Origin: Methanobacteriota archaeon
Lineage (GTDB): Archaea; Thermoplasmatota; Poseidoniia; Poseidoniales; Poseidoniaceae
DNA length: 64,000 bases
Direction: 5' to 3'
Assembly (NCBI GenBank): GCA_002689345.1
Contig: NZFU01000002.1
Span: 8,438 to 72,437 of the forward strand
Numbering within the stretch: position 1 is the first letter of the stretch; each line of letters opens with the position of its first letter. The translations under genes and the position numbers were made by a program. The notes below the pieces were generated by a model. The model saw nothing but the letters and a program-made list of their open reading frames with translations. It searched no databases and had not been told where the DNA came from. Shown here in pieces: positions 1 through 60,100 of the stretch.

Positions 1-1399
1 CGTCATCATCTTCATCGGAATCGTCGTCTTCATCGGAATCGTCGTCATCGGAGTCATCGTCATCTTCATCGGAATCGTCATCTTCTTCATCATCAGATTT
101 ACCAGACTTCTTTTTCACTCTCTCTCGTAGAGATGGAGCATAACTTAGGTGTAAATATGCAATAATTGCAAGTCCAATTACGCCTAGTATAATCATAACA
201 ATTCCATCGTTATAGAAACCAGCCGGCATACTTGAAGCATCATTTTCTCCACTAAACGGAGTCAATGAATTAGAACAATCATTTGCATCTATTTTCGGGT
301 CACATGGATATGTTTCCTTCATAATCAGTTCGCCACTACATGGGTCAGGAATTGTCTCAATGTCTGCTTCACATAGACTCCAAGTACCCCATTCAACATC
401 ATTGCCAGCAGCATCGGTATGTCCTTCATAGATAATGTTTCCACCAGTTCCATCAACCAATAGTCCCATGCCATTTACAACCCATAATCCAATGAATGTC
501 ACCATTAGGAAATATGCTATTGGATAGAATACATCATTTGCTTTCTTACCCATCAGCATTTTTTGCATTGGTGAAGGGAATTGCTTAATTTTTGGAATCT
601 TTCCAGGTTTAATTCCTATGCGTAAATCATCTAGTGCTTTTACTAATTCATTAGCGTCAACACGCCTATCTTCATTAGTATCTAGATAATTCAATATTGC
701 AGTTACTTCAGATGGAGACAATTTGTCCCCACCTATCTTTTCAATGCCCTTCTGCAACTCAGGGGCGTCGATCATGTTATCATCGCTACTATCCATTTCT
801 GCAAAAGCCTCTCCAGCAGTCATTCCAGATTCAGCTATGGCTAGAGCAAGGCTCTCAAATGCCATTACTGTGGCTGAATGATCCTTTTCTTCAGATTCTT
901 CTTCCTCAGAGTCATCTTCATCCGATTCTTCTTCTGCAGAGTCGTCCTCTTCTTCTGCTTCTTCTTCCTCAGAGTCATCTTCATCTGATTCTTCTTCTGC
1001 AGAGTCATCCTCTTCTTCTGCTTCATCTTCTGCTGAATCATCCTCATCATCGGCTTCTTCTTCTGCAGAGCCATCATCTTCTTCGGCTCCCTCAGAGTCA
1101 TCCTCTTCTTCAGTAGAAACTTCAATGTCGTCTTCAATAGCCTCTTCAACTACAGGAGGAGTTTCAATTTCATCAACTGAATCAACTTCTTCACTTACGA
1201 ATGAAACGCCACATTTGGAACATGATACAGAGTCTGCAGGCTGCAGTTCTCCACATGCGCCACATTCACCTAATTCCTCTTCAGAAACACCGCCAAAGCG
1301 AATATTACAATTGGAACAGGACTCACTATCAAGTGGAATGATTGCACGGCAAGCACCACACTCTGCCATCGGGATATCTTGGTTTTCTTCTTCAGACAT
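1..1399 (-). CDS. Partial CDS: the 3' end lies beyond the window start. It encodes a membrane protein with an N-terminal double zinc ribbon, a long polyacidic repeat linker, a canonical EF-hand pair, two TM helices flanking a Cys-containing loop, and a poly-Asp/Ser acidic tail. It was not in the ORF track because it has no stop in the window.
   Basis: Translating the minus strand from ATG (complement of 1397-1399) gives an open frame down to base 1 with no stop. The protein begins MSEEENQDIPMAECGACRAIIPLDSESCSNCNIRF and then ECGACGELQPADSVSCSKCGVSF, which gives two CxxC..CxxC ribbons. Next comes a run of DDSAEEESDEDDSEEEE repeats. Two 12-residue loops fit the EF-hand consensus (D at positions 1, 3 and 5, and E at position 12): DSSDDNMIDAPE and DTNEDRRVDANE. 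Hydrophobic helices are VFYPIAYFLMVTFIGLWVV and GIVMIILGVIGLAIIAYLHL. A second in-frame ATG sits at 229. The three ORF-track entries 697-1116(+), 865-1149(-) and 1125-1454(+) are wrong-frame readings of this repeat. Confidence 0.6.
   Translation of the reverse strand, partial: MSEEENQDIPMAECGACRAIIPLDSESCSNCNIRFGGVSEEELGECGACGELQPADSVSCSKCGVSFVSEEVDSVDEIETPPVVEEAIEDDIEVSTEEEDDSEGAEEDDGSAEEEADDEDDSAEDEAEEEDDSAEEESDEDDSEEEEAEEEDDSAEEESDEDDSEEEESEEKDHSATVMAFESLALAIAESGMTAGEAFAEMDSSDDNMIDAPELQKGIEKIGGDKLSPSEVTAILNYLDTNEDRRVDANELVKALDDLRIGIKPGKIPKIKQFPSPMQKMLMGKKANDVFYPIAYFLMVTFIGLWVVNGMGLLVDGTGGNIIYEGHTDAAGNDVEWGTWSLCEADIETIPDPCSGELIMKETYPCDPKIDANDCSNSLTPFSGENDASSMPAGFYNDGIVMIILGVIGLAIIAYLHLSYAPSLRERVKKKSGKSDDEEDDDSDEDDDDSDDDDSDEDDDSDEDDD
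880..1040. repeat. Tandem, roughly 66-bp in-frame duplication encoding the acidic EEAEEEDDSAEEESDEDDSEEE module
   Basis: The sequence from about 897-962 is nearly identical to 963-1028. Both copies translate to the same acidic peptide on the minus strand. Confidence 0.6.
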
Positions 1400-1495
1400 T
1401 ACTGCCACTCATGTTTCCGACCCCATTACACGATATAATGGTTCATGGACTTGAAGCGCTAGGGTCCCGTTAGACGGGGCTAAGGAGGTGTGTCG

Positions 1496-2368
1496 ATGGG
1501 AGCAATGGAATTAGGACGAATTTATACATTGAATCTGGTATCACAGGATGAAATGCTTGGATATGTTGATACCGTGTCAATGAAGGACCAAGAACATGTT
1601 TTGCTATTGTCAAGACTACCTCAGCGTAGATTATTAGAGCATGTAGATCTTGACAAAGTTGAGGCGTATTGGGTAACAACTCAAGATGTTACAGGTTCAA
1701 TACAGCCCTCATTGGAGCAAATTCACGATTTGGTAGTTTCTAGAGTGGAAAATCACACAGGAATTGCTATTATCGAGGGAATCGAATGGCTAATTTCCAT
1801 ACACGGTTTTTCCGAGGTGTTACGTATGGTGATGAAAATGAAGGATTCTTTACACAGGAAACCTTGGTCAATTCTCCTAGTGGTTGCAGAAGATATCTTT
1901 GATGAGGTTCAAATCACTAAATGGCAACGCGAAGCCCCATCTTGGAATATTCCAAAGAATGTTGAATTTGTGGAATTTGATGAGGTCGCAGAAGATACTG
2001 AAGAATTAGAACTCGAGTTAAACGAAAAGCCCCTAAACGATGATGGTTCTACCCCATTATCATTCCTCGTTAGAATTCCTAGAGAAGGATATTCAAAAGA
2101 TATTGCACGCCGTCGAATTCTACAATGGAGGCGGATGGGATTAGATGTTTCTTCTGCCGAGCCTGCACTGTTTCAAGACTCAGACGACAAGGGATTTGAA
2201 ATCTATAAATCAGTTGAGAGAAAGGTCAGAAGGGCTATCGAACTAGATAATCGTCTCGACATTCTATTAGAAAGAGGACACCGTTCTGAAGTGACAAAGA
2301 TGCGCTTCAGAGTTAGACAACTAACTGGATTTGATGATGTGGAATCACGAATTGACAAACTTATCTAG
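1496..2368 (+). CDS. Hypothetical protein with a possible DUF835-like (degenerate RecA/KaiC-like) domain
   Basis: The ORF runs 1490-2368. The first ATG is at 1496 and is preceded by AAGGAGGTG at 1483-1491. The central region (AYWVTT...GIAIIEGIEWLISIHGFSEVLRMVMKMKD...ILLVVAEDIFDE) resembles the archaeal DUF835 pattern as I recall it. This is not verifiable here. Confidence 0.4.
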   Translation: MGAMELGRIYTLNLVSQDEMLGYVDTVSMKDQEHVLLLSRLPQRRLLEHVDLDKVEAYWVTTQDVTGSIQPSLEQIHDLVVSRVENHTGIAIIEGIEWLISIHGFSEVLRMVMKMKDSLHRKPWSILLVVAEDIFDEVQITKWQREAPSWNIPKNVEFVEFDEVAEDTEELELELNEKPLNDDGSTPLSFLVRIPREGYSKDIARRRILQWRRMGLDVSSAEPALFQDSDDKGFEIYKSVERKVRRAIELDNRLDILLERGHRSEVTKMRFRVRQLTGFDDVESRIDKLI

Positions 2369-3902
2369 GTAGTCTGCCACATTCGGCCTCTATCCTAGCT
2401 AGCCAACCACCATTAGACAGTTCTGTAGCAATACTTTCGATCTCATCTGATGTCGATCTATCTCCTGATAATGGAGCAGATATCTTACGCACTAAAGTGT
2501 ATAGTGATTTGACATGGTTGGCGGGCTCTGCATTTCGATATTCGAGTGCTTCACATGCAATGATTAGTTCACATGCTAAAACCTGAGATAAGTGATTGCA
2601 AGATTGAATTAGATTCCAACAAGCAGTTGCTCCCATTGACACATGGTCTTCTTGCCCTCCGGATGTAGGTGTTGAAAACGCAGAACGTGGCATTGTTCGG
2701 CCATGCATTTCAGCCAGTGCCGCAGCAGCAACATAATGGACAATCATCATACCAGACTCAAGTCCCGAGTTGGTTGCCAAAAATGCAGGCAAATTGCTAC
2801 GAGATGGATCTACGATTTGATCAATTCTTCTTTCACTAATGTGCGCTAATTCGAAAATGGCATGCGACATTCCGTCAGCTGCAAGCGCTAAGACTTCACC
2901 ATGGAAATTGCCTTGACTTATCACTTCATCAACACCAGGATTAGACGGGTTCGGGAAAATTAATGGATTGTCTGTGGCACTGTTTATTTCAATGTCCAGC
3001 GTTGCTGACATATTCCTAAACCGCTCTAGTACTGCGCCATGTACCTGGGGGATACATCTGAATGAATATGCATCTTGTACTCTATCACAATCAGCATGCG
3101 ATGCAAGGATAGGTGATTTATCCATTATTTTTGTAATCCTTTCAGCTACTAGTGACTGACCATGATGTGGCCTAGCTTGTTGTACGCGGGGGTCCATCGG
3201 TTTGATTGAACACTCTCTGGCCTCTATCGAAACACAAGCGATCAAGTCAGCTAATGGTAATAGATTGGAAAGCATATTTTCAGCACGGGTCAAAAATGAA
3301 CACATTTGACTTGTCCCATTAATTAGAGAGAGGCCATCTTTAGCGGATAAATCAACACCGATTAATCCCTTTTCGGTTAGCATTGATGTAGTTGGTATTG
3401 GTCCATCTTCGCCCCATACTTCACCTTCTCCAATCAGTGCTAGTGCCATATGTGACAAAGGTGCTAAATCACCAGATGCTCCTAAAGAACCAATGCGAGG
3501 GACTACTGGAATAATGTCGAGATTTAGATAGGCAATGATTTGCTCAATAACAGTTCTTTGAATTCCTGAATGCCCCTTGACTAGAGAGTTGGCCCTTACG
3601 CACATCATTGCCCTTGTATCAGATATGGACATTCTTTCACCAATGGCACAGGCATGAGACCGAATTAGATTGACCTGCAATGCAGCGAGGTCCTCTGGCG
3701 AGATTGATTCACTAACAAGTGCACCAAACCCTGTGTTGATTCCATATACTGTCTTACCACTTTGGAGAATCTCGTCTACAACTTTACGAGAAGCCTCGAC
3801 CTTTAGCCATGCATCTGATGCGACTTCTACCTTTTCACCCATTGAAACCAATGAGATTTCTGTAGATGAAAGTGTATTCCCGTCTAGTTTGATACTTCCC
3901 AT
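2361..3902 (-). CDS. hutH: Histidine ammonia-lyase
   Basis: 513-aa protein. It has the MIO-forming Ala-Ser-Gly motif (GSLGASGDLAPLSH). An N-terminal GINTGFG motif is present. The length is typical for HAL. Its start ATG overlaps the hutU stop by 1 nt. Confidence 0.9.
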   Translation of the reverse strand: MGSIKLDGNTLSSTEISLVSMGEKVEVASDAWLKVEASRKVVDEILQSGKTVYGINTGFGALVSESISPEDLAALQVNLIRSHACAIGERMSISDTRAMMCVRANSLVKGHSGIQRTVIEQIIAYLNLDIIPVVPRIGSLGASGDLAPLSHMALALIGEGEVWGEDGPIPTTSMLTEKGLIGVDLSAKDGLSLINGTSQMCSFLTRAENMLSNLLPLADLIACVSIEARECSIKPMDPRVQQARPHHGQSLVAERITKIMDKSPILASHADCDRVQDAYSFRCIPQVHGAVLERFRNMSATLDIEINSATDNPLIFPNPSNPGVDEVISQGNFHGEVLALAADGMSHAIFELAHISERRIDQIVDPSRSNLPAFLATNSGLESGMMIVHYVAAAALAEMHGRTMPRSAFSTPTSGGQEDHVSMGATACWNLIQSCNHLSQVLACELIIACEALEYRNAEPANHVKSLYTLVRKISAPLSGDRSTSDEIESIATELSNGGWLARIEAECGRLPR

Positions 3903-5932
3903 TATGATTCACCACCATACACTGAGTCAATGAGGTTGTCCGTTGTGAAGTTGGGTAATGTGACCTTCAATTTCTTATTGGACTCCATGGCGCGTTTAAT
4001 TGCAAAAACCGCACCATCATTTCGAGCCCATGCTCTTCGAGAAATTCCATTATTAACGTCCCAATCCAGCATCGAAAGAAGTTTTCTTTCACTATCTTCA
4101 CTGCCGTCTATCAATAATCCAAAGCCACCGTTAATGACTTCACCCCAACCTACTCCTCCACCGTTATGTAGGCTTATCCAGGTGGCGCCTCTGAATGAAT
4201 CTCCAACGAAGTTTTGCACCGCCATATCAGCCGTAAACATTGAACCATCAGTGATATTTGCAGTTTCACGATATGGGGAATCAGTACCTGATACATCATG
4301 ATGGTCTCGACCTAATACGATGGGAGCGCTAATTATACCACTAGCAATAGCATCATTGAAGGCTTTAGCGATATTTTTTCTGCCTTCGGTATCAGCATAC
4401 AAGATTCGTGCTTGACTTCCAACAACCATTTGATTCTCTGCAGCTTGTTCAATCCATCTGATGTTATCGAGCATTTGCTGCTTAATCTCATCTGGAGAAT
4501 TGCTAGCCATCTCCTTTAGGACTTTAGCGGCAATAGCATCACTCTTGGCTAGATCAGATGGATCACAGGAAGTACATACCCACCTGAATGGTCCAAAGCC
4601 GTAATCAAAGCACATAGGCCCCATTATATCCTCAACATAACTAGGATATCTGAATCCGTCACCTTTGGCATTCATCACATCAGCTCCAGCTCTAGATGCT
4701 TCTAGTAAGAATGCATTACCATAGTCCCAGAAATAAGTCCCGTTCGAAACTAGGGAATTAACAGCAGCAGCATGTCTGCGAAGGGTTTTCTGTACTTCTA
4801 AGCGAAATTGTTCAGGATCGGATGCCATCATTTCCTTGCCTTCTTCGAATGACAAAGTAACTGGATAATATCCACCTTGCCATGGATTATGTAAACTTGT
4901 TTGGTCGGATAGTAAGTCGATTCTGACATTTCTTTCAACCATTCTTTCCAACAATTCGACAATATTTCCTATGTGGCCAATCGATATTGCTTCTCCACTA
5001 TTTTTGGCATTCAACATTCTGTCAATAGCATCATCGGTTGAATTTGCTATTACCGATAACCAACCTTGTTCATGTCTCTTAGTAGCTGCATGAGGGTTAA
5101 TTTCGCTAACAATACACGATGCCCCTGCGATTACAGCAGCCTTTGCTTGTGCACCACTCATTCCACCCAATCCAGATGTGATGAATGTAATTCCAGCAAG
5201 GTCATCCTTTGCTCCGCAAAACTTCCTAGCTGCATTTAACACTGTAATCGTCGTTCCATGGACAATGCCTTGAGGTCCGATGTACATGTAAGAGCCTGCC
5301 GTCATTTGACCATATTGACTGACGCCTAATGCATTCATTCTGTCATAATCATCTTGTGATGAATAGTTTGGAATAACCATTCCATTTGTTATTACAACCC
5401 TAGGTGCGTCTTTAGAGGAAGGAAATAACCCCAGTGGATGACCTGAATACATTACAAGAGTTTGGTCATCTTCCATTTCACATAGATATTTCATCACAAG
5501 TCTATATTGAGCCCAATTCTGGAATACTGCTCCATTACCACCGTATGTGATTAATTCATGAGGGAATTGGGCAACTTCTTTGTCTAAATTATTGTGAATC
5601 ATCAACATTATTGCAGCAGCCTGCTTAGATTTTGCTGGGTAGGAATCAATTGGATATGCCTTCATAGCATATTCTGTAGGACGATATCTCATCATCCATA
5701 TACGACCATGGGTTTCAAGTTCATCTGCAAATTCTTTTGCCAAGGATTGGTGCAAACTAGAATCAAAATATCTTAACGCATTACGTAAAGCCAATTTTTT
5801 TTCTTCGAGAGATAGAATTTGACGTCTTTTTGGTGCATGATCAACATCCTGAGAAATCCCAGGATGTTCAGGTAGAGATTTGGGTATTCCAGTGCCGACA
5901 TGTGCGCGCATAGCATCAATATCGGTTGGCAT
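3902..5932 (-). CDS. hutU: Urocanate hydratase
   Basis: 676-aa protein. Urocanase-typical blocks are present (GSYMYIGPQGIVHGT, NAD-binding GGMSGAQ). It lies directly upstream of hutH and is co-oriented with it. Confidence 0.9.
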   Translation of the reverse strand: MPTDIDAMRAHVGTGIPKSLPEHPGISQDVDHAPKRRQILSLEEKKLALRNALRYFDSSLHQSLAKEFADELETHGRIWMMRYRPTEYAMKAYPIDSYPAKSKQAAAIMLMIHNNLDKEVAQFPHELITYGGNGAVFQNWAQYRLVMKYLCEMEDDQTLVMYSGHPLGLFPSSKDAPRVVITNGMVIPNYSSQDDYDRMNALGVSQYGQMTAGSYMYIGPQGIVHGTTITVLNAARKFCGAKDDLAGITFITSGLGGMSGAQAKAAVIAGASCIVSEINPHAATKRHEQGWLSVIANSTDDAIDRMLNAKNSGEAISIGHIGNIVELLERMVERNVRIDLLSDQTSLHNPWQGGYYPVTLSFEEGKEMMASDPEQFRLEVQKTLRRHAAAVNSLVSNGTYFWDYGNAFLLEASRAGADVMNAKGDGFRYPSYVEDIMGPMCFDYGFGPFRWVCTSCDPSDLAKSDAIAAKVLKEMASNSPDEIKQQMLDNIRWIEQAAENQMVVGSQARILYADTEGRKNIAKAFNDAIASGIISAPIVLGRDHHDVSGTDSPYRETANITDGSMFTADMAVQNFVGDSFRGATWISLHNGGGVGWGEVINGGFGLLIDGSEDSERKLLSMLDWDVNNGISRRAWARNDGAVFAIKRAMESNKKLKVTLPNFTTDNLIDSVYGGES

Positions 5933-30603: not shown

Positions 30604-33426
30604 TCAGGTGCGACGGTTAGTTCTAACACGGAATATACCAGTAGATTGCAATAACTTGCGGAATTCCTCAATCATAAACACAGTGCTGGCCACTAATATG
30701 ACAATGAACCAATCTGCTCTTTCCAAAGGAGTAGTCGATAATAATTCGCCGACTTCAAAATTCGTAAGCGGTATGGACCATTCAGCTCCTTGTACTGCGA
30801 TTAGTAACAGTGACATCGAGAAGAAGACTGCGAGATAAATTGCTCTGTTGGAGAATAGACCCAGTTTAAACACACTGTCTTCACTGCTACGGCAATTCAT
30901 TACATTGAATAATTGATAGACGATAAACACACTGAAACACATCGTCCTTGCATAAGCATCACCGTTACTTAGAGCCAAATAGTAAACGATTAGAGTTCCA
31001 GTAACCATGACTGCACCGAGGTAGAATATCAAAAGTAAGTCTTTGAGATTGGGGAGAGATTCGTCTACTGGGCGCGGAGGCCGGTCCATGACATTAGAGT
31101 GCTTTCTTTCAACACCTAATGCAACGGCAGGTGGCCCATCCATCAGAATATTGATCACAAGTATTTGGGTTGCCGTCAAGGGCAATGGCCATTGGAATAC
31201 GACGGATGCTAGCATTAGTAATGCTACGGCAGCGACATTTGTTGAGACTTGATATCGTACGAAATTTCGTATATTGGCGTATATTTTACGCCCTTCCTCT
31301 ACCGCATTGACGATATTAGCAAAATTGTCATCTTGCAATACCATATCAGATGCGTCTTTAGCAACGTCTGTTCCAGCAATACCCATTGAAATGCCGATAT
31401 TTGCGCGGGATAATGCAGGTGCGTCATTTACTCCATCGCCAGTCATGGCAACAACTTCTCCCTCGTCTTGTAGCGCTGTTACAATGCGCATTTTCTGTTC
31501 AGGAGTTACGCGACTAAAGATAGCAGCGCCCTTAACAATATCACGCATAGCCTCATCATCGAGAACCTCCAATCTATCTCCACCGATAGATTCGATATGT
31601 GGTTTTGTAATGTTTAGGTCTTCTCCAATAGACTGAGCGGTCATTTGCTGGTCCCCTGTTATCATCTTTACACGGATACCTGCCTTTTGGCACCTGGCTA
31701 TAGCATCATAAACCTCAGCACGAGGTGGGTCCATAATTCCAACCATTCCAAGGAAAATCAGATTGTCTTCCATTGTAGTCATATCAGTAGTATCTTCTCC
31801 AGGTTCAACCTTCCTAGCACACAATGCAATAACTCTCATAGCTTTACTAGCCATGTCACTATTAGCATTCGAAGCGTATTCAAAGTCCCCCTTCTCAATA
31901 GGAACAATTTCGCCATTGTTAACTTTCCACTTCACCAGTTGTTTGAAACCACCCGCACCACCTTTGGAAAACACCCATTGGTCGCCTTCATATTCATGAA
32001 TCACAGACATTCTTTTACGGTCCGTATTGAAGAAGAATTCATGCCTGCGCGGATGTCTTTGAGCAAACTTAGCTACTGAGCCATTAATCTTGTACCCCAA
32101 AACTGCACAAGCACTGTCAGTAGGATCTCCGATAGCTGACCATTGGCCATCGACTTCCGCTATTTGTGAATTATGGCATAAAGATAGACAGGTTGCAGCC
32201 AATCGGAATCCCAAATCGCTTTGTAATTCAGCCATTTCTTCATCGCTTAATTCTTCACCATCGTGCATTAGCTTGCCTTCAGGGCGGAAACCTTCGCCAC
32301 TAATTCCAAACGTCTTTGTTGGTAACATCAAACGTCTAACAGTCATCTGATTCTTAGTTAGTGTACCAGTCTTATCTGTACAAATAACGGTTGTTGACCC
32401 TAGTGTTTCAACAGCCTTCATTCTACGAATGATAGCCTTGTGCCTAGCCATATTCCTCATACCAATAGCCAAAGTGGTTACCAAAATTATCGGCAACCCT
32501 TCTGGTACAATAGCCACGAATATTGCAATAGCGATCAAGAGTTGTGCTTTGGCTTCTTTGACTAAATCGCCACCATCGACATATGCTAATATCAATTCGA
32601 TTGAAACGATTAATGTTGCAACTATTAGAGCGATGAAGCCTAGGAATTTTCCGAGTGATTCCAATTTATGCTCTAGCGGTGTTTTCGGAGTTTCAGCCTC
32701 GGCAATATCGCTGGCAATGCGGCCAAGTTCAGTACTCATGCCAGTGGAAGTAACAATTCCTACAGCCCTGCCTGTGGAGATTGTTGTACCCATGTAAAGC
32801 ATGTTTTTCCTATCGGCTAGTAACGTTTCAGGAGGTAGAGGGTCAGTAGTGACCTTTGCAGGCATCGATTCGCCAGTTAGGGCAGATTCGTGCACTTTAC
32901 ATTGCCATGACTCATTAACGCGTAAATCAGCAGGAACGTTGAGACCTTCCTCGATTTTAACTATATCACCAGGGACCAACTGAGTAGTGCTCAACTCAAT
33001 TTCCATTCCATCTCTACAGACGACACATCTCGAGATTGTCATCTGTTTTAGAGCACCCATCTCTTGTTCAGCCTTATTTTCCTGCCAAAAGCCGAAGAAG
33101 GCGTTAGCGGTCAAAACAATAGCGATGAATATGGCATCTCCTGGTTGATCGGGATGAGTGGCTAAAGCAAGTAGAGCCGCCCCTATTAGCAAATAATTCA
33201 AAGGATCATGATATTGAGAAATAAAACGAATGAAATTAGAAGTTTTCTCGGGTTCTTGTAATTTATTCTCACCGAATTCCTCCAATCGCTTTTCGGCCTC
33301 TGAAGAAGTTAATCCACCAAGAGGGGTGTCGAGGTCAAGCAGTACATCTTCACTACTCTTGGTATGCCATAAAATATCTGACATGATATCACCAAGGCTG
33401 GATGCCCTTATATTGCGGTATAACAC
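30604..33426 (-). CDS. P-type ATPase, Ca2+-transporting (P2 type)
   Basis: It has the phosphorylation motif ICTDKTGTLT and the TGES-like SALTGES motif. The hinge MTGDGVNDAPAL is present. The protein is 940 aa with 10 TM helices. Confidence 0.85.
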   Translation of the reverse strand: MLYRNIRASSLGDIMSDILWHTKSSEDVLLDLDTPLGGLTSSEAEKRLEEFGENKLQEPEKTSNFIRFISQYHDPLNYLLIGAALLALATHPDQPGDAIFIAIVLTANAFFGFWQENKAEQEMGALKQMTISRCVVCRDGMEIELSTTQLVPGDIVKIEEGLNVPADLRVNESWQCKVHESALTGESMPAKVTTDPLPPETLLADRKNMLYMGTTISTGRAVGIVTSTGMSTELGRIASDIAEAETPKTPLEHKLESLGKFLGFIALIVATLIVSIELILAYVDGGDLVKEAKAQLLIAIAIFVAIVPEGLPIILVTTLAIGMRNMARHKAIIRRMKAVETLGSTTVICTDKTGTLTKNQMTVRRLMLPTKTFGISGEGFRPEGKLMHDGEELSDEEMAELQSDLGFRLAATCLSLCHNSQIAEVDGQWSAIGDPTDSACAVLGYKINGSVAKFAQRHPRRHEFFFNTDRKRMSVIHEYEGDQWVFSKGGAGGFKQLVKWKVNNGEIVPIEKGDFEYASNANSDMASKAMRVIALCARKVEPGEDTTDMTTMEDNLIFLGMVGIMDPPRAEVYDAIARCQKAGIRVKMITGDQQMTAQSIGEDLNITKPHIESIGGDRLEVLDDEAMRDIVKGAAIFSRVTPEQKMRIVTALQDEGEVVAMTGDGVNDAPALSRANIGISMGIAGTDVAKDASDMVLQDDNFANIVNAVEEGRKIYANIRNFVRYQVSTNVAAVALLMLASVVFQWPLPLTATQILVINILMDGPPAVALGVERKHSNVMDRPPRPVDESLPNLKDLLLIFYLGAVMVTGTLIVYYLALSNGDAYARTMCFSVFIVYQLFNVMNCRSSEDSVFKLGLFSNRAIYLAVFFSMSLLLIAVQGAEWSIPLTNFEVGELLSTTPLERADWFIVILVASTVFMIEEFRKLLQSTGIFRVRTNRRT

Positions 33427-51831: not shown

Positions 51832-54800
51832 GTGAGAAAAATGGCAAATATCTCTTACTTAGAAAATCCTCTCGAATCAGAGGTTTTGTATGAGACATTA
51901 TGTCAACCAGTAAGGAATTGGTTTAAAGATAAATTCCCTGATTTTACCAAACCTCAGAAATTAGCAATTCCTTCGATTATGGATGGAGACCATCTATTAC
52001 TTTGTTCACCAACCGGTTCTGGAAAGACACTAACGGCATTCCTAACTATTATCGATAAATTGGTCAGACATGCCTTAGATGGAACTTTAGAACAACGTGT
52101 CTACTGTCTTTACATATCTCCAATAAAAGCTCTAGCAAATGATATTCAAAAGAACTTGATTGGACCGCTTGGGGAAATAGAGGAGAAATATCTACCAGAT
52201 AGGGCTCAAGGGAAAATTCGAGTAGGTCTTAGGACTGGTGATACCCCTCAATCTGAAAGGCAAAAGATGCTGCGTAAGCCACCTCATATTCTGATTACAA
52301 CACCAGAGAGTATGGCTATTGCTATCTCATCACCTCGATTCCAACCTATTGTATCCAATGTTGAATGGATAATTATTGATGAGATGCACTCATTGGTTCC
52401 AACAAAGCGAGGAGTACATTTAGCACTTACAATTTCACTTCTAGATACGATTCTAGAGAGACCAGTTCAACGAATTGGTATATCTGCTACGATGGAACCA
52501 TTGGAAACTGTAGCAGAATATCTAGTAGCAAGTGATGACCGCGAAAGTCGTAATGCAAGTCAGGATGTAAAGATTGCAAAGATTAGTGGAGCTAGAGAAT
52601 TAGATTTAGACATCCTATTGTGCTCTCCAAAATTCAGTGACCTTTCGGTGATGAAAGTTCTAGAGATGAATGTAGAAATGATCGCTGATCTAATCAGTGC
52701 ACATAACACAACTCTAGTATTCGCAAATACAAGAAAAATGACTGAAACTTTGGTACAAAAGTTACGTCCTTACTTAGGCGAATTAATCGCAGGTCACCAC
52801 GGTTCTATGGACAAGAGAATCCGTCTTGATGTCGAGAGGAAATTAAAACTGGGCCATTTGAGGGCAGTTGTCACTTCATCTTCCTTGGAAATGGGTATTG
52901 ATATCGGTTCTGTCGACATGGTAATCCAAATCGGCTCGCCAGGAGACATTGCTACAGCATTGCAAAGAATAGGTAGAGCAGGACACCACGTAGGCGGAAT
53001 TCCTCGTGCTAGGTTCTTGCCAACGAGTGTAGATGATCTAATCGAATTAGCTGCATTACAAGCAGCAATTCAAACTGGTGAAATGGATAAATTAGATTTT
53101 CCACAAAATAGTTTAGATGTTTTAGCACAGTTCTTGATAGGTCTCGTAATTATCAATGAACGAGATATTGATGAAGCCTATGAAGTAGTTACTAGCACTT
53201 GGTCATATCGAAATTTGAGATATGATGATTTTATTGAAGTTCTAGATATGCTTGAAGAAGAACGTCGTGTTTGGATTGATTGGGAAGAAAACCTCTATGG
53301 AAAGCGCGGATATTCAAGAATGATTTACTACACAAATATTGGTACTATCGCTCCTGATAATTCATACCTAGTATTCAATGCCGAAGGAAGTATCTTGGGG
53401 CAATTATCATCTTCATTCGTTGCAAACCTAAGAGGCGGAGATGTCATTCTTCTTGGAGGCTCCACTTACAGAGTAACCAATATTCAAGGAACAAGAGTAA
53501 ATGTTGCCTCAGTTACAGGATACAGGCCAACAGTCCCTTCATGGAGTGGTGAAGCTAGAAGCCGTTCAAGGGAGTTATCTGGGGCGTTGTTAGACCTCAT
53601 AGGACATTGTGTTAACACTCTAAGACGTCAAAACGACCCTCGTGTAATTCTAAGAGATGCTTATGGATTGAGCGAAGGTGTATCTAATACAATAGCTAGG
53701 CATTTAGAAGAGCATACTCTCGATTCATTCCAGGTACCCGATCCAAATCGACTAATTGTTGAACAAATCGTTTCTGGTGGAATGCCAACATACCTGATAA
53801 CATCTTGTCGAGGAAGAGGATTCAATACTGCATTAGGATACTTTATGGCAGGATTGGCAGAAAAAGATGGTATCGCTGTGCTAGAGTTGTCATTTGATGA
53901 AAATGGATTACTTATCAAAACTAGTCAAGAAGTAGACCCAGGAAAAATGTATGAGTCATTCCAATCCAATGACCATCTAGAGGTCATTGAAAGATATATT
54001 GTAAATACACAAATATTTGCTAAGAGATTCAGAGAAGTTGCAGGCCGCTCACTAATTATTCCTAAGAGAATCGGGGCTGAAGAAGTGAGCCCTCAGCAAT
54101 TCCAGCAACGCGCAGATTCATTGTTGCAGAGACATCGTTCGATTGAAGATTCATTATTGATTAAAGAAGCGAAGGCTGAAATTATGTTCGGTGATATCGA
54201 CATAAAATCACTAAATGACTTCTTAGAATCCAGTAAAGACTCTGAAGCAAGAATCGTTCACACAAAGGTTCCTGTTCCTTCAAGGCTCGGAATGAGCCTT
54301 TACATGAGTACTTTCGAAGATCTACTGTCAATGAAGACAAGAGCGTTCCTTGTCAAAGACATAGACCCTGAAATTTTACGCCGATTGTTGGGTAATAGGA
54401 GTCTTGCAACTGAATTAACCGATGAGCAATTAGCAGATTACTATTCCAATAAGGTCCCTAATCCAACCAATGCTTCACAACTTCTGCACCTAATGAGTAA
54501 AGGTGGAGGTTTAGATCGTAATTGGGAAAACCCTCTGTATGCTGCTAAACTAGCAGGTATCGAACACAGCCTTATCGAAAAATGGGTTGCTGATTTAGCA
54601 CAACAAGGTGAAATTACAAAATTGCGTTCAACTGGAATGAAAGAACTTGATGACAAATGGTTTACTTCATACATGGCTGAAATCCATGGCTCTCTAGGAT
54701 GTATTGCTGAAGCTGGTGGCAAGGACATGGAAGATATTCGTGACCTTTACACCAAGGGCATTACATATGAGGTAGCAACTGATTTTAATGGATTAAAGCC

Positions 54801-57126
54801 TACTAAATGGGTTGAAAAAACCATTTCAGATCCCCATGAAGCATTACGTGTGAAAATTATCGAAATGCTGGGCAGTGAAGGTCCTGCTAAGGGCGACCAA
54901 ATTTCTGGAAGACTGCCTTTCCCACAGGGACAAATCGATTCAATTTTGCATGAATTAGAGATGCGAAATGTAATTTCAGTCGGATTCTTTACTCAAACAG
55001 AAGATGCCGAATACATCCTCAAAGTCGATGAGCATAGAATTACTGGCGGAGAGGAAGATGTTGTCGAATATCGATGGGTTCAGAACCTAGTTATGAGTAA
55101 ATCATTCGAGACATACCCCGATGGATTTACTGCATTCGATCAACATATTCTATTCCAAAAACAGCAAGAAATGCTGTATAGAGTAGATGGATTCAGATAT
55201 GCTGATTGGAAAGATGTTCAACTTGACTCAGATGTTGTCATGGGTAGGCTATTGCATAACAGAATAGGTTATACCACTCGTAAAAATATTCCAATGCTAC
55301 TGGGTTTGAAGCCAGAACCTTGGCTGGGCGAAATGGAAAAATTGATTCTTGAAAAGGTACCGAAGGGTGAAAATCTAACTCGTCAAGAAATTTTGGCTGA
55401 TTTCCCTAAGGGCGAGGAACACAAATCTCTTCAAAGGGATTTGAAGAATGCAATTAGCAATCTAGAAAGACAGTTATGTTTGGTCAAACAATTCGAGGAT
55501 GTTGTTGGACGCAGACGAAGACTGTCGCTATTCCACCGTGTTCATGATGTCTATGAATCAATGGATTTCGAAGATGCATTGGTTGAAGTAATCAAGCGAA
55601 TGGGGCCTGTTAAGGCGTTCACTCTACGTTATTATGTATCCAGAAGTGTTGAGGAATTGGCATTAGCACTACGAAATTTAGAGAACGATGGACGAATTGC
55701 TAGAGTTATGGCATTAGTGCCAGAACCTGAAGCATTTTACGTACTTCCAGATGAAGTATCTAGTCTTAGTTCACCTAATAGAGAAGATAGAACGTTACGT
55801 ATTCTTACTCAATCCGACCCATATGTTTCGAGATTCATTTGGGAAGTTCGCTCAGTGCTTGATAGAGGATGGTATCTACCGGTATTCAAAGGGGTTGACC
55901 CTATTGGAAAGGTGTTGATGTTCAAGATTAATGATTATCTTGAGATTAAGGACATGCATATTCCTTATGCCTATCTTGATGAATTCTGTACAGCTTTTGA
56001 GAAATTACTAGACAATCATTCTGACCAGTTGGTAGATGTTGCTGTACTATCCCAATTCAATGGAATACCTGTTACTGAATTAGAAGATGACTTTAGAAAT
56101 GCTCTGGAAGGAATAGGATTCAAGTTAGCGGGGGAGAGAATGATTCGTGGAGGAATCGTCGATCCGCAACCAAGAGAAATTGCTGAAAGAGCATTATTCC
56201 ACCGACATCATTTACATCAAAACTCGCGATTAGAAAACGAAATTGAAGCACTGGAAAGTGTTCAAGAAGTTAGAGATGATTTCGGGCTACGTGGACGTGC
56301 TGAAGTCTATCGGGTTAGCCTGAAAAACATGGCTAGTGCCCATCAGTTGCACCAAGGAATCAATTTACGAGGACACCAAGTATGGGCATCGTATGACCAC
56401 TTTTCGACTTTACTTGCTATACGAGGACAAGAACCTGTTGAAGAATTACTAGATGTGCTTGAATTCTTCGAAACTCATAGTGACCCTAATCTATTCATGG
56501 AAAGACATGCAATGAAGCGTGCTGCTTTCAGAAAATTGATTCAGCCATTATTGCGAAGTGGCCATATGGTTCAGGATTACCGTGGAGGTTTCCGTTCTGT
56601 AGCACCTCGGCAAGGATTAGACCCGGTTATTTTGCGAAGAGAATATCTGAGAAGGTTAGTTTCAGATTACCCTGTAATAACTCTCAAACAATTCACTCGT
56701 CTAGCAGGAACACCATTTAAGCCTGAAGAATTGAAGGCGATATTAACTGAATTTGAAGAAGATTCAACACTGATTAAGGGATTCTTGATTCAGGATTTGC
56801 ATGAGGTTTGTTGGGGTAGAAAAGATCTGCTCAATGAAGCCAAAGATGTGCCACCAATCCGTGATTTCGTAATTCCGCCATCTGACCCGATTGCGCCATA
56901 CTTTGCTGATGTGTTGAAACAAAAGTTCGGATTTGGTAGTGCTTACCTAGTATTCAGGAATGCAGAACCTGTAGCCGCTTTCAAAGCTAATACTCGAGAT
57001 AAGGTGATAGATGTCACTGATTATGAAGGTTCGGAAAAGGGTTGGAGAATCGTTAAAGAATTCGCATGGGAACATCAAATGCCACTCAAGACCGAATTGA
57101 GAATTGGTGGCAAGAGAAGAAAGTGA
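51832..57126 (+). CDS. lhr: Lhr-like superfamily-2 DNA helicase, long form (1764 aa) with a roughly 850-aa C-terminal extension
   Basis: Motif I is CSPTGSGKT and motif II is IIDEMH. ISPIKALANDI is typical of the Lhr core. Motif VI is QRIGRAGH. The C-terminal half contains repeated winged-helix-like segments. Confidence 0.7.
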   Translation: MRKMANISYLENPLESEVLYETLCQPVRNWFKDKFPDFTKPQKLAIPSIMDGDHLLLCSPTGSGKTLTAFLTIIDKLVRHALDGTLEQRVYCLYISPIKALANDIQKNLIGPLGEIEEKYLPDRAQGKIRVGLRTGDTPQSERQKMLRKPPHILITTPESMAIAISSPRFQPIVSNVEWIIIDEMHSLVPTKRGVHLALTISLLDTILERPVQRIGISATMEPLETVAEYLVASDDRESRNASQDVKIAKISGARELDLDILLCSPKFSDLSVMKVLEMNVEMIADLISAHNTTLVFANTRKMTETLVQKLRPYLGELIAGHHGSMDKRIRLDVERKLKLGHLRAVVTSSSLEMGIDIGSVDMVIQIGSPGDIATALQRIGRAGHHVGGIPRARFLPTSVDDLIELAALQAAIQTGEMDKLDFPQNSLDVLAQFLIGLVIINERDIDEAYEVVTSTWSYRNLRYDDFIEVLDMLEEERRVWIDWEENLYGKRGYSRMIYYTNIGTIAPDNSYLVFNAEGSILGQLSSSFVANLRGGDVILLGGSTYRVTNIQGTRVNVASVTGYRPTVPSWSGEARSRSRELSGALLDLIGHCVNTLRRQNDPRVILRDAYGLSEGVSNTIARHLEEHTLDSFQVPDPNRLIVEQIVSGGMPTYLITSCRGRGFNTALGYFMAGLAEKDGIAVLELSFDENGLLIKTSQEVDPGKMYESFQSNDHLEVIERYIVNTQIFAKRFREVAGRSLIIPKRIGAEEVSPQQFQQRADSLLQRHRSIEDSLLIKEAKAEIMFGDIDIKSLNDFLESSKDSEARIVHTKVPVPSRLGMSLYMSTFEDLLSMKTRAFLVKDIDPEILRRLLGNRSLATELTDEQLADYYSNKVPNPTNASQLLHLMSKGGGLDRNWENPLYAAKLAGIEHSLIEKWVADLAQQGEITKLRSTGMKELDDKWFTSYMAEIHGSLGCIAEAGGKDMEDIRDLYTKGITYEVATDFNGLKPTKWVEKTISDPHEALRVKIIEMLGSEGPAKGDQISGRLPFPQGQIDSILHELEMRNVISVGFFTQTEDAEYILKVDEHRITGGEEDVVEYRWVQNLVMSKSFETYPDGFTAFDQHILFQKQQEMLYRVDGFRYADWKDVQLDSDVVMGRLLHNRIGYTTRKNIPMLLGLKPEPWLGEMEKLILEKVPKGENLTRQEILADFPKGEEHKSLQRDLKNAISNLERQLCLVKQFEDVVGRRRRLSLFHRVHDVYESMDFEDALVEVIKRMGPVKAFTLRYYVSRSVEELALALRNLENDGRIARVMALVPEPEAFYVLPDEVSSLSSPNREDRTLRILTQSDPYVSRFIWEVRSVLDRGWYLPVFKGVDPIGKVLMFKINDYLEIKDMHIPYAYLDEFCTAFEKLLDNHSDQLVDVAVLSQFNGIPVTELEDDFRNALEGIGFKLAGERMIRGGIVDPQPREIAERALFHRHHLHQNSRLENEIEALESVQEVRDDFGLRGRAEVYRVSLKNMASAHQLHQGINLRGHQVWASYDHFSTLLAIRGQEPVEELLDVLEFFETHSDPNLFMERHAMKRAAFRKLIQPLLRSGHMVQDYRGGFRSVAPRQGLDPVILRREYLRRLVSDYPVITLKQFTRLAGTPFKPEELKAILTEFEEDSTLIKGFLIQDLHEVCWGRKDLLNEAKDVPPIRDFVIPPSDPIAPYFADVLKQKFGFGSAYLVFRNAEPVAAFKANTRDKVIDVTDYEGSEKGWRIVKEFAWEHQMPLKTELRIGGKRRK

Positions 57127-57175
57127 CAAACTTTCTTACCAATATCATCTAATCACAATTTTCAGTCCAATAATC

Positions 57176-60100
57176 ATGGACATGAGAAGTGTTAGATTAA
57201 ATAACAAGGAAATGGGACGGACAATTGTGAACCGTAAGGCGTTTATCCTAATTGCTCTGATGATTTTAGTTTCAGCAAGTCCACTATTATCTTCAACATC
57301 TGCTAACGAAGTCGAAGATATTGTGATTCTTGATACTGCAGTCAATCCTGCCAATAACCACACCTACCATTTGTTATCAGCATCATCTTGGAGTGATGCT
57401 GCAACCGTTGCTCGTAGTCTTGATGGATTCTTGGTAACCATAGATGATGCTGAAGAAGACGAGTGGATTTTCGATACATTTGCCAGTGGAAATGACACCA
57501 CACGTCACCTATGGATCGGTCTTTCAGATTCACAAGAAGAGGGAGATTATCGCTGGCATGATGGAACTCCATTCATGTATCGAAATTGGGGTGAAGGGCA
57601 GCCTGGAAGTGGGGATGACGAAGATTATGTCCACATTACAGGAACCAATATGGGATCTATCGAGCCAGCGGATTGGAACGATTTAGAAGATGACCCACAA
57701 TACTTCCCTGTCTATGGGGTAGTTGAGATTGGTGAAGGTGCTGATTATGCCCTCAGGTTTGATGGCGATGACGACCACATAATCATCGATGAAGAAATGC
57801 CAGATTGGGATGGCCATATTGAGATTGAAGCATGGGTCAATGTTCCAGATACAGATGGAATACAATTTATCACAATGTTCGGAGATTATGGATGGGGTCT
57901 TTATCTGAATAATGGAGACTTAGCCTATTCAAATCAATATTCAATGTCACAGAATCCAGTTTCAAACCAATCCATTCAAGAAAATGTATGGACTCATGTT
58001 AAGGTAGTCGTAAATACCACAAACGGTGGTGAATTTTTCATTGACAACCAATCAGCAGGTTTGATTGATGTAAATGATTCACAAATTCCAAGTGGTGACT
58101 TCGGTTCAAATGACTGCTTCCAATCAGGAGATGATTGTGATGAGTTGTTTATTGGAAAGATGGGAGCAGGTTGTGACTGTAACTACTTCCGTGGAATGCT
58201 TGATGATGTTATTATTAGTAATTCGATGAATGAAAGTATGTGGATGTTCACTGAAGGTGAAGGTGCATCAACCGTTGATTCACAAAATCGTGAGGGGGAA
58301 ATAATTGGCGCATCATGGGTTATGCCCGATGGAACAATTATTGCCCAGGCTGTTGAAATAGAAAATGGTGAATTCTATGATGGAATCGATGCAAATGCTG
58401 GAGACACCTTGCTATTTTTCATGGAGATTCCTGAAAACACCCAATATCTGAGTCTCAGTATGTACACATGGGAATTTGATTTCGAAGCGGAAGAAACATC
58501 TGAAGAAATAGAAATTGAAATATATATTTCGAAAGATGAAATTCCTTCGGCTTGGGACCATGACTATGAAGTGATCACATATGATTGGGGATTGTATGTC
58601 TATGAATACTTTGAATGGCCTGATGAAGGGACATATTGGATGACAGTTTCTTCCAATTATGAAATTTCAAACCTAGAGATAAATGCATACTGGGAACTTG
58701 CACCTGAGCCGCCGGAACTCGATGATATGACTGAACTTAATGATGGCATTGCAGTTACTGGTCAAACCATCACAAGAAATAGTGACAAACCCCTCTACTA
58801 CTATGTAGATTTACAAGATGAGTTGGCAGAATTACGTGTCAACACATGGGGCGGACCTGGTGATTGTGAACTGCACATAGCCCTAGGAGCCCTACCGATG
58901 ACCGATGATTGGGGATGGGATGATTTTGAGTCACAAAGTTCGAGTTCAGACACTAGCGGTCGACAAATCGGTGGTGGGCAAGAAACCTCAGACCATTCAT
59001 ACAATCCGGGTAATGATGAAACTGTGCAAATTTTCGATGCCCAACCGGGTATTTACTACATCATGATGACATCTTATAGTGGATGCAGACAAGTATCAAT
59101 ACAAGCTGATTTCACATATAGTCCAGACAATGTTGACCCTGAATCTGCTATCGAATTAACCGCTGGAATTTCCTATGGTCCACTTAGTGGATTCGAGGGA
59201 TTAGACCAATATTTCTACATCGATGTACCAGTGGGAACTGAGCGCTTAGAAGTTGATTTGAATAATGGTGATGGAGAGGCTAAATTGATGATGAGGCTCG
59301 ACCAATATCCAACATGGACAACCTATGACAAGCACTCTAATGCACCAGGTGCTGGTGATAAAATTGGATTTAATGATCCAACTCCTGGACGATGGTACAT
59401 ATTATTGGGCAGTGAAGAATATTACAGTCGTATCGATATTACAGCATCCTTTGAAGACCGCTATGTATGGACATATGATGGTGAACCTATTCAGTTATTC
59501 AATGATGAAGAGATTGGAGGAATTAGTGCTCCAGAAGGAGAAGAATTGTACTTCTTCATAGATTTAGGTGATGATGTTGCTTCAGATTTATTCATTGAAA
59601 CATGGGGTGGCGAAGGCGACCTAGCACTATTTGCCGAAGTTGAGGAAATCGACTGGGAAGACATGAACGGTGGCGGGCCAGGAGGTCGACAATGGGGCGA
59701 AAATGGAGAATATGAATCCGATAATGGTGAGGCTAATGAAGAAATAAGTATATTCTTTGCAACAGGTCAAATAGACATCACAATGTATGCAAATACTGAC
59801 ATTGAGGATATATCGATTATCGCAGTATGGGAAATATTTGATGCACCGGGACCTGGGCCAGACCCAGACCCAGACCCAGAACCAAACCCAGACCTAGAAA
59901 TTATTCCGTGTGATGAATATGCTTTGGAATTGTTTGAAGAGATGGATAGAAACTCTGATGGCGATTTAGGTCCAGAAGAAATGGATGAAGATGAATTAGA
60001 AGAATTTGACACCAACAGGGATGGTGTTATTGACATCAATGAATTAACAATGAGTGCTTGTACATGTGAAAATGAAATATGGATGACATTCATGCAAGTA

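Follow-up and report, generated by a model that had tools for sequence, protein, structure and literature searches.

The left edge of the window, by which we mean the whole 64,000-nt stretch of Poseidoniaceae DNA analysed here, holds the 5' part of a minus-strand gene that lies back to back with a gene for a DUF835 protein. Translation of 2-1399 (-) gives a stop-free frame of 466 codons that begins with an ATG at 1399, is preceded by an in-frame TGA 12 nt upstream and leaves the window at its left end. The features of the locus, with residue numbers (aa) of the focal protein, are as follows:

1-1399 (-): focal gene, N-terminal 466 codons (open frame, full gene in contig L001, in-frame TGA upstream)
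1202-1366 (-): predicted double C4 zinc ribbon, aa 12-66, CxxC-x10-CxxC twice (CxxC at aa 14, 28, 46 and 60)
884-1198 (-): acidic disordered linker rich in E/D/S/A, aa 68-172 (composition, net charge -66)
635-814 (-): EF-hand pair, aa 196-255 (EF-hand_7, two PS00018 matches, Foldseek)
758-793 (-): EF-hand loop 1, putative Ca-binding, aa 203-214, DSSDDNMIDAPE (PS00018 match)
647-682 (-): EF-hand loop 2, putative Ca-binding, aa 240-251, DTNEDRRVDANE (PS00018 match)
533-613 (-): Lys-rich juxtamembrane segment, aa 263-289, motif FP..Q..M.K..ND (net charge +6)
470-547 (-): TM helix 1, aa 285-310, with the invariant N309-G310 at its end (hydropathy peak, AlphaFold helix)
218-469 (-): predicted outside loop, aa 311-394, 84 aa (alignments A1 and A3, model)
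107-217 (-): TM helix 2, aa 395-431, followed by the basic stop-transfer stretch LRERVKKKSGK (hydropathy peak, AlphaFold helix)
2-106 (-): first residues, aa 432-466, of the polyacidic (D/S/E) tract on the C-terminal side (translation; about 80 aa more past the window)
1400-1489: divergent intergenic region of 90 bp between the focal gene and the DUF835 gene (coordinates)
1490-2368 (+): DUF835 ('iKaiC', presumed inactivated KaiC-like) gene, its product extended by helices at the C-terminus (DUF835 profile 56.4 bits, cutoff 33.1)

The complete gene is found in a near-identical public contig covering the same locus (L001:12504-14246, 580 aa), which differs from the window over the focal gene by one mismatch and two in-frame indels. 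Past the window edge this contig adds 114 further residues before the stop, made up of about 80 more acidic residues and a conserved beta-rich domain of about 45 aa; by our reckoning the full protein of the window allele would be about 557 aa long. This contig supplies the 3' end that the initial annotation wished to see recovered, including a C-terminal domain invisible in the window, and the polyacidic tail does run on past the edge as had been supposed. The description of the gene as unannotated holds for the window's ORF track, from which the frame is absent only because ORFs that leave the window end are not listed; it does not hold elsewhere, as the ORF is called in full in the ENA contig and relatives carry the label "EF-hand domain-containing protein". 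The three listed ORFs in this region had likewise been taken as alternate frames of the acidic repeat. This is correct for 697-1116 (+) and 865-1149 (-), whereas 1125-1454 (+) is antisense to the zinc-ribbon/N-terminal part and the intergenic region, not to the repeat.

Indeed, 2-1399 (-) is part of a genuine gene, as its initial placement on the minus strand at the window's left edge had anticipated: an uninterrupted ORF of 509-748 aa is present at 60 of 80 species-level loci. The gene is specific to the Poseidoniales lineage. That the frame is open by chance across low-complexity sequence, that it is a pseudogene, or that the acidic repeat fuses two separate genes could each be argued from public gene calls, many of which have internal starts or splits (e.g., four pieces in L007), and from the N-gaps that lie inside the repeat in several assemblies. 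Against any such origin, one unbroken frame runs from the zinc ribbon to the C-terminal domain in those 60 independent loci, family identity at the protein level is 29-75%, and alleles clustering at 90% identity or more differ almost solely by indels within the two acidic tracts, all of them in frame. We regard these alternatives as effectively refuted and give them next to no credence.

The protein opens with two zinc ribbons that are clear as motifs, though their profile scores are sub-threshold. The four CxxC motifs are kept in all 60 complete orthologs (two of which have a fifth), and some relatives have precomputed PF12773 or PF10571 matches. The window protein itself does not reach the Pfam gathering threshold for DZR (PF12773), which stands at 27.3 bits: the entire sequence scores 17.5 bits, and the N-terminal part taken by itself 22.4. 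UPF0547 likewise stays below threshold, at 22 bits over the region; the zinc-ribbon profile check proposed at the outset gave sub-threshold scores here. Two consecutive CxxC-x10-CxxC units at the extreme N-terminus are nonetheless the arrangement of the DZR (PF12773/UPF0547) N-terminal modules of prokaryotic membrane and signalling proteins, for which, to our knowledge, no function is known. The linker that follows is 64% D+E, has a pLDDT below 50 in the AlphaFold model and varies in length, in frame, among alleles. Its DNA is a tandem repeat (881-1088; Tandem Repeats Finder) with a period of 63 nt and 3.3 copies in the window, against 4.3 copies in L001. The second acidic tract, a D/S/E tail, begins near aa 435 and reaches the window edge.

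Between the first linker and the membrane lies a predicted calmodulin-type lobe. The initial call of an EF-hand pair is upheld by Pfam, in which EF-hand_7 (PF13499) scores 39.7 bits against a cutoff of 30 over aa 196-255 and EF-hand_6 scores 27.4 bits against 25 in the window protein (in the full-length L001 protein EF-hand_6 alone is reported, at 27.1 bits), and by PROSITE PS00018 matches at aa 203-215 and 240-252. Both 12-residue loops, DSSDDNMIDAPE and DTNEDRRVDANE, carry Ca ligands at positions 1, 3, 5, 9 and 12; the first and last of these positions, filled by D203 and E214 in one loop and by D240 and E251 in the other, hardly vary among 38 relatives, and the complete orthologs have 2-7 EF-hand loops each. 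The AlphaFold model is confident here (pLDDT 81-88 over aa 181-260), and Foldseek matches its paired helix-loop-helix fold to calmodulin, CaBP1 and parvalbumin with a probability of 1.0, superposing it on calmodulin and CaBP1 lobes at an rmsd of about 1 Å over 60 aa with about 30% identity. The focal protein thus shares one canonical pair with standard loops with calmodulin/CaBP-type proteins (EF-hand_7, PF13499); unlike them, the window allele has a single lobe within an integral membrane protein of 557-580 aa, flanked by zinc ribbons, polyacidic tracts and a two-TM module. Judged from these residues, the focal EF-hands probably bind Ca2+, and they could be structural or buffering instead of sensing.

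Just past the EF-hand pair, F274, P275, Q279, M283, K285, N288 and D289 of the Lys-rich motif are nearly invariant in the alignment, and from there the chain is predicted to enter the membrane as a hairpin. The two-TM core was modelled as two helices and a small sheet (pLDDT 84.7, pTM 0.68), with TM1 above pLDDT 90. Both TM flanks are K/R-rich and the loop has a net charge of -14, a positive-inside pattern; furthermore, an EF-hand pair also occurs after TM2 in one relative (P0088) and, by reading of the sequence, in another (P0005). The topology is accordingly likely to be one with both ends in the cytoplasm, in agreement with the orientation first assigned. The order of parts first described (zinc ribbons, acidic linker, EF-hand pair, TM helix, Cys-containing loop, TM helix, polyacidic tail) likewise stood up, with the Pfam and PROSITE matches and the structural match to a calmodulin lobe behind it.

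The outside loop, which combines a small beta sheet with Cys343, Cys354, Cys366 and Cys375 (C366 and C375 being invariant), contains the family's most conserved motifs: V-D-G-x-G-G, Y-P-C...C-x-N-S-L-T-P and S-S-M-P-x-G-F-Y-x-D. The invariant residues N309, G317, G320, Y364, C366, C375, N377, S390, M391 and D398 are found within the loop or where the two helices adjoin it. With conservation so concentrated on the outside, the protein may act mainly there, in a way that has nothing to do with cytoplasmic Ca2+. Within the loop, the best-conserved segment, NSLTP...SSMPAGFY, is modelled at a pLDDT of only about 60, and this moderate confidence hints at an oligomer or partner absent from the model.

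Judged by sequence and model comparisons, the two-TM module is of no known family: the core matched nothing in Pfam or NCBIfam (Pfam gave no match in any of 33 members), its model matched nothing in PDB or BFVD with E below 0.3 in Foldseek, and a PDB-sequence profile search with core alignment A3 returned nothing significant. Matches to NCBIfam "elastin-binding protein EbpS" (20 bits against 300) and to Pfam SLC52, Glycophorin and Ctr fall on TM2 plus the acidic tail and were rejected as composition artefacts. The C-terminal domain beyond the tail is conserved in the family (alignment A5), and the likenesses seen there are sub-threshold: of 12 members, seven gave a hit to the RimP C-terminal SH3 domain (E 0.0076 at best) and four to Myosin_N. 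Profile searching of PDB sequences with A5 gave nothing significant, and the Pfam and PDB-sequence searches found no characterised relative; a resemblance to PRC-barrel domains was considered and set aside, no profile match supporting it.

The gene is flanked by a conserved pair of neighbours. Upstream and on the other strand, the DUF835 gene is present at 71 of 80 genome loci, as well as in contigs L001, L007, L008, L009 and L010; a small zinc-ribbon gene follows downstream at 75 of the 80. Where one or other feature is missing, a contig end or an assembly gap mostly interrupts the locus. The stop-to-start gap within this three-gene cassette is 4 nt in L001. Even the most divergent member, L010, retains the cassette, although its downstream flank differs. 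The hutU-hutH genes next door were weighed as possible functional partners; since the part of the L010 flank that can be seen, on the downstream side, lacks them, we treat them as simple neighbours. The wider conserved neighbourhood is of a housekeeping kind (Kae1/TsaD, FKBP, methylmalonyl-CoA mutase).

DUF835 has been described as a possibly inactivated KaiC-superfamily ATPase domain that serves as an output of archaeal response regulators (Galperin et al. 2018, PMC5847659). The neighbour at 1490-2368 shares this domain and has no Walker A motif, which was absent from all four DUF835 copies checked; sequence searches gave no solved relative. It differs from the described outputs in standing alone, with no receiver domain, and in pairing with an EF-hand membrane protein, not a histidine kinase, a functional link suggested by gene order only. 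The small zinc-ribbon partner has an invariant W-x-G-G-x-T-D-F motif, and searching with it collected 478 clusters at 90% identity (E up to 0.001), which offered no functional lead: their few source names are hypothetical proteins and one JGI label, "UPF0148 family".

Poseidoniales, or marine Group II archaea, are among the most abundant archaea of the surface ocean and are uncultured, and their lineage-specific core genes are in consequence largely uncharted. Among 1.84 billion representatives, only 51 clusters are genuine members of the family described here, and 149 genome loci carry it; practically all of these come from Poseidoniales, which bears on the call to chart its orthologs. Four further hits of the exhaustive profile search (P0090, P0118, P0121 and P0122) are repetitive sequences with many matches over a short part of the profile and were set aside as spurious. 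Among the listed loci there is one copy per genome, except in NAT11, which has a divergent second locus. In the literature we found the DUF835/iKaiC description and, beyond it, only a statement in general terms that calcium-binding domains occur in gene modules specific to Poseidoniales (PMC9258230).

We propose, with moderate confidence, that the gene encodes a Ca2+-responsive membrane signalling or tethering protein of Poseidoniales, here of Poseidoniaceae. On the cytoplasmic side, an N-terminal double zinc ribbon would be followed by a disordered polyacidic linker of variable length and by a calmodulin-lobe-like EF-hand pair placed just ahead of the Lys-rich juxtamembrane motif that the family conserves; back in the cytoplasm beyond TM2, another polyacidic tract would lead to a small, possibly SH3-like, beta domain. 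Outside, a disulfide-type loop of about 84 aa would present the family's most conserved residues, clustered at the outer membrane boundary. Binding of Ca2+ to the membrane-proximal EF lobe may then alter how the hairpin and the tethered terminal domains engage their partners, of which the adjacently encoded DUF835 and small zinc-ribbon proteins are likely candidates. Both the partner interactions and the direction of signalling are suggested by this arrangement, adjacency of genes being no proof of interaction.

The acidity of the protein admits another account, already raised for the polyacidic tracts in the initial annotation, in which it would be a membrane-tethered Ca2+/Mg2+ buffer: the tracts would soak up cations just inside the membrane with low affinity and high capacity, much as calsequestrin does, and the EF-hands would add high-affinity sites. 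The full protein is 38% D+E, with a net charge of about -195; the 42 other ORFs of the window have a median D+E share of 13.5% and reach 22% at most. In the family, D+E stays at 26-36% in all 60 complete orthologs while the sequence and length of the tracts drift. This free variation in length suits a spacer at least equally well, however, and a buffer would not call for zinc ribbons, for an outside loop so strongly conserved, for the conserved domain at the C-terminus or for two partner genes in fixed positions. The extreme D/E content and large net negative charge are shared with calsequestrin-like and other polyacidic Ca2+ buffers, but the focal protein has neither thioredoxin-fold domains nor a sequence relationship to calsequestrin (no calsequestrin or thioredoxin-fold match in Pfam at E up to 10), and its acidic parts are predicted disordered linkers of variable length between conserved domains of a membrane protein. 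We therefore think buffering an unlikely main function. It is also possible to read the protein as a structural tether or spacer with no Ca2+ regulation, its hairpin anchored in the membrane or through the loop to a surface-layer component and its linkers spacing the zinc-ribbon and beta-barrel ends so as to dock a cytoplasmic structure. Conserved terminal domains joined by linkers of free length are what such a tether would show, and its single copy per genome (NAT11 apart) and conserved housekeeping neighbourhood fit as well. The EF-hands would in that case be constitutively loaded or purely structural, which seems to us a slim prospect: their Ca ligands are kept across the family and the hands themselves are expanded up to 7 in subclades, from which we argue that Ca2+ binding itself is under selection. 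Tethering of this unregulated kind has, in our view, a small chance of being the whole explanation.

Distinctly improbable, by comparison with the Ca2+-responsive signalling or tethering protein that we favour, is a new kind of two-TM ion channel or transporter, assembled from several subunits and gated through the EF-hands that each of them carries in the cytoplasm, with the pre-TM2 loop lining the outer mouth and the polyacidic tails concentrating cations at the inner mouth. MthK and KcsA are two-TM pore-loop channels, among them an archaeal Ca2+-gated example, and the focal protein is comparable to them in its two TM helices, its conserved segment before TM2 and its cytoplasmic, predicted Ca2+-binding domain. 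The S-S-M-P-x-G-F-Y-x-D segment stands directly before TM2 and is of low confidence in the monomer model, conserved N, D and G-rich residues lie at the outer helix ends, and the EF-hand pair sits about 30 residues before TM1. On the other side, no channel family was matched in Pfam, PDB sequences or Foldseek (neither Ion_trans_2 nor RCK, and no structural match), the model has no re-entrant pore helix, the sequence has no selectivity-filter signature, and the TM helices are hydrophobic and, except at their outer ends, poorly conserved in distant members.

A bolder extension of the favoured signalling reading, which we advance only tentatively and with a fair measure of doubt, is that the three-gene cassette forms an undescribed archaeal Ca2+ signalling system in which the membrane module couples an outer cation or ligand pocket to the EF-hands, as a receptor or a Ca2+-gated pore, and passes the signal to an iKaiC output. 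Were this so, marine Group II archaea would own a lineage-specific Ca2+ sensing pathway. The family is in any case a concrete, testable candidate bearing on whether archaea use Ca2+ as a signal; it brings together canonical EF-hands and a membrane module of no known family in one integral membrane protein, found order-wide and beside a signalling-type iKaiC gene.

The initial annotation had further placed the gene within a calcium-handling theme spread along the window. The genes it named are without linkage to this one, lying 29 kb (a P-type ATPase) and 56 kb (a surface protein) away; the former is a type II pump below the cutoffs of the Ca-pump equivalogs, and the latter has EF-hand matches that are sub-threshold only. 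The theme goes unsupported; the conserved neighbours are instead the DUF835/iKaiC and small zinc-ribbon genes. Separately, members of the family are often fragmented or truncated in public gene catalogues, which we attribute to the assembly gaps, frameshifts and internal-start miscalls brought about by the acidic repeats.

The minus-strand gene at the left edge of the window translates as 466 stop-free codons (window 2-1399, reverse strand) from an ATG at 1399, and an in-frame TGA 12 nt upstream of this ATG makes the N-terminus of the protein well defined. Because the window's left edge cuts the frame, the gene is absent from the mechanical ORF list, where only short ORFs in other frames are shown:

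697-1116, plus strand: other frame of the acidic repeat
865-1149, minus strand: other frame of the acidic repeat
1125-1454, plus strand: overlaps the zinc-ribbon coding sequence, in antisense, and the intergenic region

The initial annotation had read all three as alternate frames of the acidic repeat, which holds for the first two but not for the third. Its proposal of a real gene crossing the window edge is borne out by these open codons together with a full 580-aa call in L001, a 64.8-kb marine-metagenome contig from ENA on which this locus is also present and which was reached via the neighbouring hutH protein. Across the gene, L001 and the window differ by one mismatch, one additional 63-nt repeat unit and one 6-nt indel, and through L001 the 3' end was recovered: the acidic tail extends past the window and is followed by a conserved C-terminal domain. 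In one 90%-identity cluster, the alleles (580, 563, 559 and 554 aa) have almost identical folded parts; nearly all their differences are in-frame indels within the two acidic tracts. This rules out a chance ORF and shows that the tracts behave as length-variable spacers, selected to keep frame and charge. We are nearly certain that the gene and its architecture are real, and the chance of an artefact with no real gene behind it is negligible.

The 63-nt unit of the first acidic tract (window 881-1088) is present in 3.3 versus 4.3 copies between near-identical alleles, and the tail (window 6-94) varies by 6-nt and larger in-frame indels; these repeat-number differences could be population variation or assembly collapse. 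Acidic repeats also disrupt assemblies and gene calls at other loci (L008:400-2577, L009:5264-7239, L007:5384-7402, L022, L042, L063), with N runs inside orthologues and, in a pilon-polished long-read contig, one orthologue split into four ORFs. Many public protein entries lack the zinc ribbon owing to internal start calls.

CxxC motifs at aa 14, 28, 46 and 60 form two C4 zinc ribbons; the double zinc ribbon originally proposed thus stands by motif but not by Pfam threshold, the DZR profile giving 17.5-22.4 bits where 27.3 are needed. There follow an acidic linker (aa 68-172, D+E 64%), predicted to be disordered and containing the 63-nt tandem repeat, and an EF-hand pair (aa 196-255) whose canonical character is upheld: it scores 39.7 bits against a Pfam threshold of 30, both loops match PROSITE PS00018, and its model aligns to lobes of calmodulin and CaBP1 (probability 1.0, rmsd ~1 Å). 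All of the sequence and structure tests applied place the protein in the EF-hand family. Ahead of TM1 lies a conserved Lys-rich juxtamembrane stretch (FP..Q..M.K..ND), and the membrane hairpin consists of TM1 (aa 285-310) and TM2 (aa 395-431), joined by an 84-aa loop with Cys343, 354, 366 and 375. A D/S/E tail starts after LRERVKKKSGK, and past the window edge L001 adds ~80 further acidic residues, a beta-rich, conserved domain of ~45 aa (IDVGDWVGLDIDGDEFFGEIIEFDDDEGTVTIETEDGEEITGDQDDMFVE) and a short acidic terminus. By profile search, this C-terminal domain gave weak but recurrent matches to SH3-like small barrels and no match in the PDB.

The two-TM module (TM1, loop and TM2) had no Pfam match in 33 diverse members and no PDB relative by profile search, and an AlphaFold model of its core (pLDDT 84.7, pTM 0.68) had no Foldseek match in PDB or BFVD. 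Its invariant residues (N309, G317, G320, Y364, C366, C375, N377, S390, M391, D398) are confined to the loop and the adjoining helix ends. The most constrained site of the family would thus be extracellular or at the outer leaflet, and Gly and oxygen-bearing residues (N, D, S) abound there. Of the core model, the stretch immediately preceding TM2 has the lowest confidence, which may reflect a missing partner or oligomer. Since the relatives P0103 and P0110 carry two module copies and nothing else of the focal architecture, the two-TM module is an independent one. These paralogues (L011:1541-3460, L012:930-2849, encoding P0103, and P0110) are 609-639 aa long, with two tandem modules and a long basic C-terminus but no zinc ribbon, EF-hand or acidic tract, and are followed by a 211-aa basic, Pro-rich, Cys-containing protein. 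The MAG NAT11 has two core-matching loci, L033 and L034; L033 has neither zinc ribbon nor C-terminal domain nor either partner gene, and so may be, and probably is, of the two-module type.

Both TM helices have K/R-rich flanks, and the loop carries a net charge of -14 with paired cysteines within it. An additional EF-hand pair follows TM2 in the relative P0088 (and in P0005, by reading its sequence), so that the N- and C-terminal sides should share a compartment. Zinc ribbons and EF-hands are normally expected in the cytoplasm. From the charge pattern, these relatives and the usual location of the domains, we infer that both sides are cytoplasmic and the loop outside, in keeping with the N-in/C-in topology first suggested.

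A word-indexed search with the EF-hand-to-TM2 segment returned 72 relatives, the only informative names being those of a 98% identical entry and a JGI "Ca2+-binding EF-hand superfamily protein". When 1.84 billion cluster representatives were searched exhaustively with HMMER, the two-TM core profile had only 55 matches, and four of them were discarded as repeat artefacts. Scanning one genome per GTDB species gave 149 loci. For the best 80 of them the label is Poseidoniales, Poseidoniaceae or Poseidonia, or the source is an unlabelled euryarchaeal MAG, with one exception: L085, a complete archaeal three-gene cassette on a contig binned in a MAG of 'Salipiger bermudensis', an alphaproteobacterium, and most likely a binning contaminant. 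An uninterrupted ORF of 509-748 aa could be reconstructed in 60 of these 80 loci, contig ends or N-gaps cutting most of the others; all 60 have four N-terminal CxxC motifs (a fifth in two) and the C-terminal motif, and their D+E content is 26-36%.

At every locus with enough flanking sequence, the gene occurs together with two partners, counted here among the best 80 of the 149 loci:

1490-2368, opposite strand, directly upstream of the focal gene: DUF835 gene (71/80 loci)
a few bases downstream of the focal gene: small zinc-ribbon gene (75/80 loci)

The trio is retained even in the most divergent member, L010 (core identity 29%), where the downstream flank differs. Galperin et al. (PMC5847659) describe DUF835 as a divergent KaiC-superfamily ATPase domain, possibly inactivated ("iKaiC"), which archaeal response regulators use as an output domain; no Walker A motif was seen in the four cassette copies checked. 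The small zinc-ribbon proteins (103-134 aa) have one zinc ribbon and invariant D-P-x-x-Y-S and W-x-G-G-x-T-D-F motifs, and form 478 clusters at 90% identity (E <= 0.001), the few named ones being hypothetical proteins from Poseidoniaceae or Euryarchaeota archaea. The copy at L001:14251-14604, just past the window's left edge, encodes 117 aa with one zinc ribbon (CPxCG...RCxxC). Directly beyond DUF835 lie hutH (aromatic amino acid lyase, 513 aa) and hutU (urocanase, 676 aa; together window 2361-5932, minus strand), an order repeated in L001, L007 and L009.

Judged from its sequence, the protein is an EF-hand Ca2+-binding protein, a known kind, whose membrane module, C-terminal domain and gene cassette are undescribed. 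We found no paper on this architecture, the nearest literature being a mention of calcium-binding domains in Poseidoniales-specific gene modules (PMC9258230). We give about an even chance to Ca2+-dependent signalling or tethering with the two cassette partners. The EF-hand lobe lies ~30 residues from TM1, adjoining the conserved basic juxtamembrane motif; Ca2+ binding there would alter the membrane hairpin or report its state, and the zinc ribbons and putative C-terminal barrel, on long, charged, extended linkers, would serve as docking sites, candidate partners being the invariably adjacent iKaiC protein and the small zinc-ribbon protein.

The full protein has 38% D+E and a net charge of -195, against a median D+E of 13.5% and a maximum of 22% among the window's 42 other long ORFs; that it acts as a cation buffer is nevertheless unlikely, and membership tests separate it from calsequestrin. 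They likewise separate it from pore-loop channels, and a new EF-hand-gated two-TM channel is a long shot. The 60 reconstructed ORFs have two to seven PROSITE EF-hand loops ahead of the membrane module (most commonly four; two in the window's subclade), and a structural tether independent of Ca2+ seems improbable. With signalling or tethering through Ca2+ as the preferred reading, the family may be regarded as a testable and well-founded candidate for sensing Ca2+ in an order of abundant, uncultured archaea.

The wider calcium-handling theme suggested for the window is not supported, as the ATPase and surface protein invoked for it are distant from the gene and outside its conserved neighbourhood. 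The P-type ATPase (30604-33426, minus strand) is type II, its best NCBIfam models being PMR1- and SERCA-type Ca2+ pumps; scoring below their equivalog cutoffs (676 vs 798 and 605 vs 703), it is at most a candidate Ca2+ pump. The 1175-aa surface protein (57104-60631, plus strand; D+E 22%) contains C-type lectin, Laminin_G_3 and PPC domains; its designation as an EF-hand protein is not borne out by the profiles, all EF-hand matches being sub-threshold (EF-hand_5, 17.1 vs 25.9 bits). At 51832-57126 (plus strand) lies a 1764-aa Lhr-type helicase (DEAD, Helicase_C, WH_Lhr, DEAD_assoc) with an AlkZ-like DNA glycosylase domain at ~aa 1163-1332.
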